Source: Bacillota bacterium (lineage in GTDB: Bacteria; Bacillota; Sulfobacillia; Sulfobacillales; JAIMBI01). Taken from it: 64,000 nt of DNA. Where the stretch lies: the NCBI GenBank assembly GCA_021846565.1, contig JAJZWS010000002.1:21612-85611 (forward strand). Reading direction: 5' to 3'. The notes below the pieces were generated by a model that saw only the letters and a program-made list of their open reading frames with translations, did not search any database and had not been told where the DNA came from. The translations under genes and the position numbers were made by a program. This document shows positions 984 to 1,400 of the stretch, in pieces (the stretch's first letter is position 1; every line of letters starts with the position of its first letter).

Positions 984-1012
984 TTGGCTTTATCTAACCG
1001 TATTCGTATAAT
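984..1012 (+). promoter_or_regulatory. sigma-A-like promoter: TTGGCT, 17 nt, TATAAT
   Basis: -35 TTGGCT at 984-989, a 17-nt spacer, and consensus -10 TATAAT at 1007-1012, inside a short AT-rich island in GC-rich DNA. It points into an ORF-free region. Confidence 0.5.
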
Positions 1013-1018
1013 GCCAAT

Positions 1019-1400
1019 CTGAGCAATTCCGTGGCGGGGAGGTTCCCCGCCGGAGTAAGCTACCGGACTGCGTGACCGGCCAAGGGGCAACCACCCTGGG
1101 AAATCCGCCTTGCCTCGCAAGGAGTACCAGCGTGGGTGCCCGCTTGACCCGCAAGGGGACGGGACAGGCAAGACGGTAGCGGTTGGGGGCCGGATCCCCC
1201 CTGTCGCCGGAAGGAAGCTTAGTACCGGAGGAGAGCCGCCCGGGGGCTTTCGGATGAGGGGAACCGTCACGGCTACCGGCAGGACGTTCGCGGTTGCGGT
1301 GCCGACCTTGCGGAGGGATGAGCCGGAAACGGCTGGGAGCCACACGGCGGCCTGCGAAAGAGCGAACAATTCCAACGAAATCGGTTCATCCCCTCATGGG
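1019..1400 (+). ncRNA. candidate structured non-coding RNA, family unknown; 3' end undefined
   Basis: No protein-like ORF on either strand. Sense-strand hairpins: 1033-1051 (7 bp), 1108-1122 (CCTTGC/GCAAGG), 1148-1157 (CCC-GCAA-GGG), 1185-1200 (GGGGG/CCCCC), 1321-1334 (AGCCG-GAAA-CGGCT). Two alternative long-range pairings target 1386-1397. Confidence 0.35.

Follow-up and report, generated by a model that had tools for sequence, protein, structure and literature searches.

TnpB nucleases are the ancestors of CRISPR-Cas12, and their guide RNAs are under development as small genome-editing tools. The sgRNA of Cas12f, which joins a tracrRNA and a crRNA, is about 200 nt in length and is bound by a Cas12f dimer. 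Within the IS607 family, the reRNA of ISXfa1 consists of a 144-nt scaffold and a 17-nt guide, with GGG as TAM and insertion site and CGG beside the guide (Yoon et al. 2023, doi 10.1101/2023.08.09.552727 / PMC10711439), and a pseudoknot in this reRNA is essential (Yoon et al. 2023, PMC10711439). The IS607 element ISFba1 has a 187-nt scaffold around a 73-nt RAGATH-18 motif, followed by a 20-nt guide (Ren et al. 2024, PMC11061315; PDB 8iaz), and omegaRNAs are frequently encoded by the protein-less PATEs of the IS200/IS605 family, which rely on other copies for TnpB (Meers et al. 2023, PMC10055086).

The stretch of DNA analysed here in its full length of 64 kb, hereafter the window, belongs to a Bacillota MAG of 67.7% GC and is identical to contig JAPTVX010000092.1 of GCA_028065455.1. 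Its positions 965-1427 are very probably what an internal deletion has left of an IS607-family insertion sequence, with no protein genes but with a predicted TnpB guide RNA. As in ISXfa1, the RNA is encoded at an IS607 right end, 3' of tnpB in full-length copies, with a CGG junction, a GGG left junction and, near the predicted guide, a terminal stem-loop that contains a sequence resembling the TnpA repeats. The ISXfa1 scaffold overlaps tnpB, however, whereas the RNA described here is 397 nt long, lies wholly 3' of the tnpB stop codon and has an added 5' domain of ~170 nt; no sequence similarity between the two was detectable. ISFba1 likewise has a structured, conserved RNA directly 3' of an IS607 TnpB, in Firmicutes/Bacillota, and a partner protein of the same fold, but no match to RAGATH-18 was found in our RNA, and the TnpB of an intact relative has 481 aa as opposed to about 390 aa. 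In common with PATEs, the element is non-autonomous, has kept its left end (LE), right end (RE) and predicted guide RNA, and would depend on TnpA and TnpB from elsewhere; unlike them, it derives from the serine-recombinase family IS607 and has the tnpA promoter fused to the RNA, whilst PATEs depend on a Y1-transposase, single-strand 'peel and paste' and hairpin ends. The RNA resembles the Cas12f sgRNA in being large for a small nuclease, and it is to Cas12f proteins that the partner TnpB is closest in structure, but there is no CRISPR array or repeat at this locus; any dimerisation on the window RNA is pure speculation.

Ends, promoter and copies of the element

In blastn comparisons, the left end of the full-length copy L048 (2267-2328, directly 5' of tnpA) was 93.5% identical to window positions 965-1026, and the RNA and right end of L048/L049 (4380-4781) were 86% identical to positions 1026-1427. 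The breakpoints of these alignments fall at window position 1026, and the 2,051-bp tnpA-tnpB interval of L048/L049, in which tnpA is truncated and tnpB of 459 aa precedes the RNA, is absent between the two matching parts; the deletion junction of the window copy is located at ~1026-1030, right after the tnpA relic (Table 1). The tnpB carrier L049 shares its sample with one contig of the window organism. Neither tnpA nor tnpB was found anywhere in the 64-kb window, no ORF of the window copy matched a Pfam family, and blastn and nhmmer detected no further copy of the element in the window. Searches of phage and plasmid collections gave no real match. What is left in the window copy is the LE and its tnpA promoter, ~10 nt from the start of tnpA, the whole ~400-nt post-tnpB RNA and the CGG right end.

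Sequence to the left of position 965 was unrelated in every homologue, and conservation dropped abruptly past the CGG on the right. Copies start with GGGG(C/T) and finish with (A/G)GCGG, apart from two that finish with GTGG or ACGG. A GGG-type left junction, CGG before the right flank and ends homologous to those of L048 are the features of IS607 ends, and the full-length copies encode at their left end a serine-recombinase TnpA with a MerR-type HTH and a resolvase domain. The combination of both ends kept, protein genes absent and presence at several unrelated loci is that of non-autonomous (PATE/MITE-like) elements.

Table 1. Features of the IS607-derived element and neighbouring genes, in window positions
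Feature	Position	Strand	Basis or remark
dcd	48-449	+	Left of element
panD	469-825	-	Left of element
Left end (LE), starting GGGGC, with tnpA promoter inside	965-1026	+	Blastn identity to L048; homologous to LE of L030 and L011
Sigma-70-type promoter, TTGGCT-17-TATAAT	984-1012	+	Consensus scan; hexamers conserved in L048, L030 and L011
Relic of tnpA start-codon region, CTGAGCAATT, derived from ATGAGCAAGTT	1019-1028	+	Alignment to the start of tnpA in L030 and L048, and to the solo copy L011
5' domain, nine helices, clade-specific	1031-1200	+	Covariance model R1, alignment A6 (16 sequences)
P1 hairpin	1033-1051		Helix of 5' domain
CCUUGC/GCAAGG	1108-1122		Helix of 5' domain
CCC-GCAA-GGG	1148-1157		Helix of 5' domain
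GGGGG/CCCCC	1185-1200		Helix of 5' domain
3' domain, core of predicted TnpB guide-RNA (omegaRNA/reRNA) scaffold	1200-1427	+	Homology to L041, L044 and L035; comprises GUCGCCGGAAGGA, CACGGCUACCGGCAGGAC, long helix, GNRA hairpin, invariant AGAGCGAACAAU, terminal hairpin and AUAGCGG
Long helix	1283-1362		Part of 3' domain
GNRA hairpin	1321-1334		Part of 3' domain
Terminal stem-loop, stem ACGAAAUC / GGUUUCGU, loop with AUGGGCAAGUU	1375-1420	+	Homologues folded singly
Right-end junction CGG, last conserved base	1425-1427	+	Divergence of near-identical strains and of all homologues right after ...AGCGG
Predicted guide, ~16-20 nt of flank, TGCTGTTTTGGCACGGAGAT	1428-1447	+	By analogy with ISXfa1 and ISFba1
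IS110-family transposase	2647-3981	-	DEDD_Tnp_IS110 and Transposase_20 in identical locus L002; between right flank and dnaE
dnaE	4424-7510

The promoter proposed in the preliminary description was upheld as the single sigma-70-like site between positions 700 and 2700, where 0.3 sites were expected; it sits in a short AT-rich island. Its hexamers are identical in L048 and read TTGACA/TATAAT or TATTAT in L030 and L011, and the solo copies of FK_Sedi together with L026 have the equivalent promoter TGTATAAT. It is the left-end (tnpA) promoter of the transposon, which adjoins the RNA because tnpA and tnpB have been deleted; transcription would start near position 1019. The same description had seen no protein-like ORF downstream, in agreement with our finding that the overlapping mechanical ORFs have no Pfam match and are disrupted in homologues by indels of 4, 30, 45, 48 and 81 nt. 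It had placed the end of the region at 1400 or possibly 1589, but the unit ends at 1427, plus the presumed guide.

Homologues were retrieved with a 20-mer from the conserved core, searched against one genome per species, and with a second pattern searched against JGI metagenomes. The 20-mer identified homologues in Bacillota MAGs, namely FK_Sedi_B_Bin.94 (five), TL2-1.bin18 (two), TL1-3.bin40 (one) and Sulfobacillus benefaciens (one), and the metagenome scan added L030 and L031. Four further hits, L012 and L015 from the genome scan and L028 and L029 from the metagenome scan, were chance matches rather than homologues. The block common to the copies opens with an AT-rich promoter segment from GGGG(C/T), has GUGGCGGGGAKGUUCCCCGCC at the start of the RNA, ends in ...(A/U)AGCGG and is bordered by unrelated flanks. 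FK_Sedi_B_Bin.94 harbours at least five solo copies at separate loci with different flanks; these are 87% identical over 69 nt to the left-end promoter of the full-length L026, and still contain either some codons of tnpA or the final codons of tnpB. The deletion junctions are of at least three kinds; each lies within ~12 nt of the RNA on its upstream side and leaves the -10 box in place.

Some copies have additional insertion modules of ~46-48 nt with TGCTTTGGGG / CCCCAAAGCA, situated in RNA loops in either orientation (L011, L013, L018, L005 and L017), with three in tandem in the 170-309 region of L017; an 81-nt unit is present twice in L026 and once in L027 (5625-5770). The ~46-48-nt modules have the look of a very small repeat, mobile or expandable, that colonises the RNA.

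Populations related to the window organism are 99.9% identical over window positions 1-1427 and then continue into three unrelated right flanks. Amongst the loci that bear on these breaks (L001, L003/L004 and L005-L010), four contigs end exactly at window position 1198, and L005 switches at ~1087 to a version that is ~10% divergent, compensatory pairs included (CCTTGC/GCAAGG to CCGTGC/GCACGG). The variety of flanks and the breaks at 1198 fit a multi-copy element and suggest that copies have recombined with each other or that assemblies are chimeric at the element; a simple fixed insertion does not lead one to expect three right flanks amongst near-identical strains. An integration hot spot in a non-coding RNA gene, or an integron-like site, was rejected as an explanation, as there is no integrase nearby and a multi-copy element accounts for the variable flanks.

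The related contigs L046 and L047, which encode DnaE, break at the IS110-family transposase, suggesting that this IS110 is also repeated or variable. A link between the RNA and this IS110, for instance as its bridge RNA, was likewise discounted, given that the conserved block ends 1.2 kb away from it and the homologues adjoin IS607 genes and not IS110. Elsewhere in the window, the overlapping ORFs MSDVVRPLSPAFTDEEQLPAKQMQTGYKAVRDRMQAHV... and ...LQPYQDVKQLWELMTAMLDEIESRQLIALAVRRLG... at 1964-2293 on the minus strand look like a single small gene that a frameshift has divided, seven tRNA genes are clustered at 13166-13822 on the plus strand, and a TPP riboswitch (22048-22147, 69.6 bits) lies upstream of an ORF at 22088/22215.

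Fold and covariation of the RNA

By comparison of homologous sequences, the RNA is a conserved structured family in a promoter-driven position and without an Rfam match. Searches of window positions 800-2700 against Rfam returned nothing at the gathering score and nothing at E<=10, in keeping with the earlier failure to place the region in a known RNA class; six related loci gave nothing at E<=1, RAGATH-18 included, and ARAGORN detected no tRNA or tmRNA in the region. The predicted free energy of positions 1018-1400 on the plus strand was -182.8 kcal/mol, a slight excess over shuffled sequences (z=-2.3), compared with z=-1.6 for the minus strand; G-U pairs in many consensus helices are consistent with the plus strand.

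Covariation, which the preliminary description had put forward as the check on its proposed fold, was strong in both domains of the RNA. In the 5' domain, 53 pairs were evaluated, with 96% of cells paired and compensatory changes in 27 of the 53, against 3-6 in slid controls, the model-fitted alignment being one that favours structure; on this model-fitted alignment, none of 500 shuffles reached the observed values. The covariance model of this domain was built on close homologues and also aligns the divergent L034, L039 and L040. For the 3' domain (1200-1375, MAFFT alignment A8), 93% of cells were paired and 17 of 39 pairs had compensatory changes, against 4-7 in slid controls. The four hairpins drawn previously all recur in the comparative consensus, each with at least one compensatory change, as helix 1 (1033-1051), helix 7 (1108-1122), helix 8 (1148-1157) and the GNRA hairpin of the 3' domain (1321-1334). 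What had been proposed as a large structured RNA therefore stands as promoter-driven, non-coding and conserved in fold, but it is the right-end RNA of an IS607 element and not a stand-alone RNA of unknown class.

Two other elements of that proposal did not survive comparison. A switch-like choice of partners had been suggested, but the pairing of 1254-1261 with 1390-1397 is complete (8/8) in the window alone, reaches 4-6/8 in homologues and displays no covariation; the 3' partner sits in the loop of the conserved terminal hairpin. The direct repeat GAGCAATTCC/GAACAATTCC, said to bracket the core, is not conserved as a repeat: its 5' copy is the relic of the tnpA start (ATGAGCAAGTT in L030) and its 3' copy falls inside the invariant AGAGCGAAnAAU core.

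The terminal stem is closed alike in each homologue by differing sequences (UUGAAACC/GGUUUCAA in L011, GAAAAUCC/GGAUUUUC in L041), and this hairpin is present in every clade directly 5' of AUAGCGG. Invariant AGAGCGAAnAAU and AUAGCGG are single-stranded amongst the nested helices that were analysed, and are candidates for a pseudoknot. The loop at 1396-1406, ATGGGCAAGTT, was observed to resemble the left-end tnpA start region (ATGGGCAAGTT in L011, ATGAGCAAGTT in L030), and the loop and LE motifs may be subterminal repeats for binding of IS607 TnpA. It is because of this resemblance to the tnpA start that gene callers call an ORF from 1396.

Two domains of different age

More distant TnpB relatives, at ~50% identity (L041, L044 and L035), have just ~165 nt, from GUCGCCGGAAGGA to AGCGG, and no 5' domain. 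Their guide-RNA region is homologous to the 3' domain of the window RNA, with CAC(C/G)GCU(A/C)CCGGC(A/U)GGAC, AGAGCGAACAAU, the terminal hairpin and AGCGG in common, and by these shared motifs the window 3' domain corresponds to an IS607 guide-RNA region of normal size. In the three relatives, the GUCGCCGGAAGGA motif codes for the TnpB C-terminus (FRRRKE...). Window positions 1203-1221 (TGT CGC CGG AAG GAA GCT TAG) still read CRRKEA-stop and match the TnpB C-terminus of these ~50% relatives, a relic which shows that the RNA formerly overlapped the end of the tnpB ORF. The 5' domain is present at TnpB identities down to ~65% (L040) and absent in more distant relatives; judged from this distribution amongst sequences, it is a clade-specific addition. 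That it arose by tandem duplication of the 3' domain and then diverged was set aside: the local alignment of the two domains scored 35 against 24.5±4.2 for shuffles, and 10 of 300 shuffles scored as high, a weak hint and not evidence, whilst nhmmer found a shared border only.

Amongst the omegaRNAs characterised to date, none is known to have a counterpart of the 5' domain. Our best guess is that this domain adds a further scaffold module, or a stabilising one, to the same RNA. It is unlikely, but worth weighing, that positions 1031-1200 are instead a separate functional RNA, such as a module for processing, stabilisation or regulation, or a domesticated sRNA, for which the transposon is a vehicle, with guiding left to the 3' domain alone. 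In size and layout, the 3' domain by itself agrees with the guide-RNA region of relatives that have no 5' domain, the nine helices fold as a closed unit, and the CRRKEA-stop relic marks the 3' border of the 5' domain. Nonetheless, the 5' domain was found directly upstream of the 3' domain in each case and never alone, and it matches no ribozyme or riboswitch in Rfam.

Partner proteins and the proposed role of the RNA

The RNA was located on the same strand as tnpB, 3' of it and extending to the right end, in all 10 distinct protein-bearing loci, and starts ~5-15 nt past the tnpB stop codon in L016, L022-25, L026/27, L030/31, L034, L039, L040 and L048. In S. benefaciens it begins 4 nt past the stop codon that closes a TnpB C-terminal fragment (AAYTSQECPQCG...HADTVGAMN); the relatives of this fragment are all PF07282 proteins, and their contigs have the same arrangement. 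L030 is an intact element, with tnpA, tnpB and then the RNA, and ATAGCGG at its end. Its tnpA (163-780, 205 aa) scored 212.6 bits with the NF033518 IS607 transposase model (cutoff 110) and contains PF00239 and PF00376; tnpA is likewise found at the left end in L026, L040, L041 and L048. The 481-aa tnpB product of L030 contains PF07282 and the RuvC-like motifs GLDAG, VLVMEDL and HADTVGALN. An AlphaFold (AF2) model of a TnpB 91% identical to it (pLDDT 88.5) was matched by Foldseek to AsCas12f and CnCas12f, with Cas12f best, and to ISFba1 TnpB (8iaz, E=2e-10), ISDra2 TnpB and Fanzor2. The Pfam family, motifs and modelled structure together indicate a protein of the TnpB/Cas12 fold with the D-E-D triad of RuvC and a zinc ribbon, whilst its NCBIfam guided_TnpB score of 77 bits, below the cutoff of 100, marks it as a divergent TnpB.

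In many loci, tnpB was found to be degraded and the downstream RNA intact, with ORFs of 73-188 aa or a frameshift split (316 + 155 aa in L026); this set comprises L022-L025, L026/L027, L034 and L039, with proteins P0002-P0024. The RNA seems to outlast its protein.

We propose that the promoter transcribes the RNA across the right end into the flank, and that the 3' domain would serve as scaffold, and the next ~16-20 nt as guide, for a TnpB nuclease that a full-length copy provides in trans; the transcript, its processing, the binding of TnpB and the guide are all inferred. The element would then be a guide-RNA-only satellite, like the PATE elements of IS200/IS605, mobilised by the serine-recombinase TnpA and retained through TnpB cutting of empty sites. 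A bolder and tentative extension, possible though we would not call it probable, is that this TnpB lineage has evolved a two-domain guide RNA of ~400 nt with a functionally required 5' module, and that the protein-less copies with their promoter are selected IS607 satellites that make use of TnpA and TnpB in trans. Were this the case, the guide RNA would have about double the length of every TnpB scaffold characterised so far, and the 5' module might, for example, scaffold a second protomer as in Cas12f, or protect or process the RNA; guide-RNA-only satellites have been described for IS200/IS605, and none for IS607 in the literature searched.

A decidedly unlikely alternative is an inert fossil, a decaying IS607 remnant whose structure is kept just because the deletion is recent and whose transcript has no function. 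The window lacks TnpA and TnpB, the TnpB genes of the clade are often fragmented, and the window copy may indeed be decaying, since its helix 2 is short by 4 nt (AGCC) and its degenerate -35 is weaker than in relatives; its tnpA ATG is also mutated. Against a fossil are the compensatory differences between solo copies, in which GGCGGGG/CCCCGCC is replaced by AGCGGGG/CCCCGCU (L020) and CCUUGC/GCAAGG by CCGUGC/GCACGG, as well as the several independent junctions that leave both the -10 box and the full RNA untouched, and the occurrence of solo copies at five or more loci in one MAG. A cis-regulatory leader or riboswitch for a gene starting at ATG 1396 is scarcely credible: gene callers let an ORF of related contigs begin at 1388-1396, and alternative pairings can be drawn around the ATG, but this call is an artefact, the real gene of L003 having its own RBS and GTG past the breakpoint. 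The pairing is not conserved, no riboswitch family matches, and the sequence past 1427 is unrelated between copies, even in 99.9%-identical strains, with downstream genes often on the opposite strand, which argues against a leader.

As a predicted TnpB guide RNA retained in a protein-less IS607 derivative, the window RNA belongs to a lineage in which the RNA lies entirely outside the tnpB ORF and has a large extra domain with strong covariation, and which shows how scaffolds grow. It is a new RNA family for Rfam-type libraries, and in the annotation of Sulfobacillus-like Bacillota MAGs it accounts for one class of GC-rich 'intergenic structured RNAs' as well as for places where assemblies break. 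That the RNA seems to outlive its protein bears on the persistence, and possible domestication, of transposon guide RNAs.
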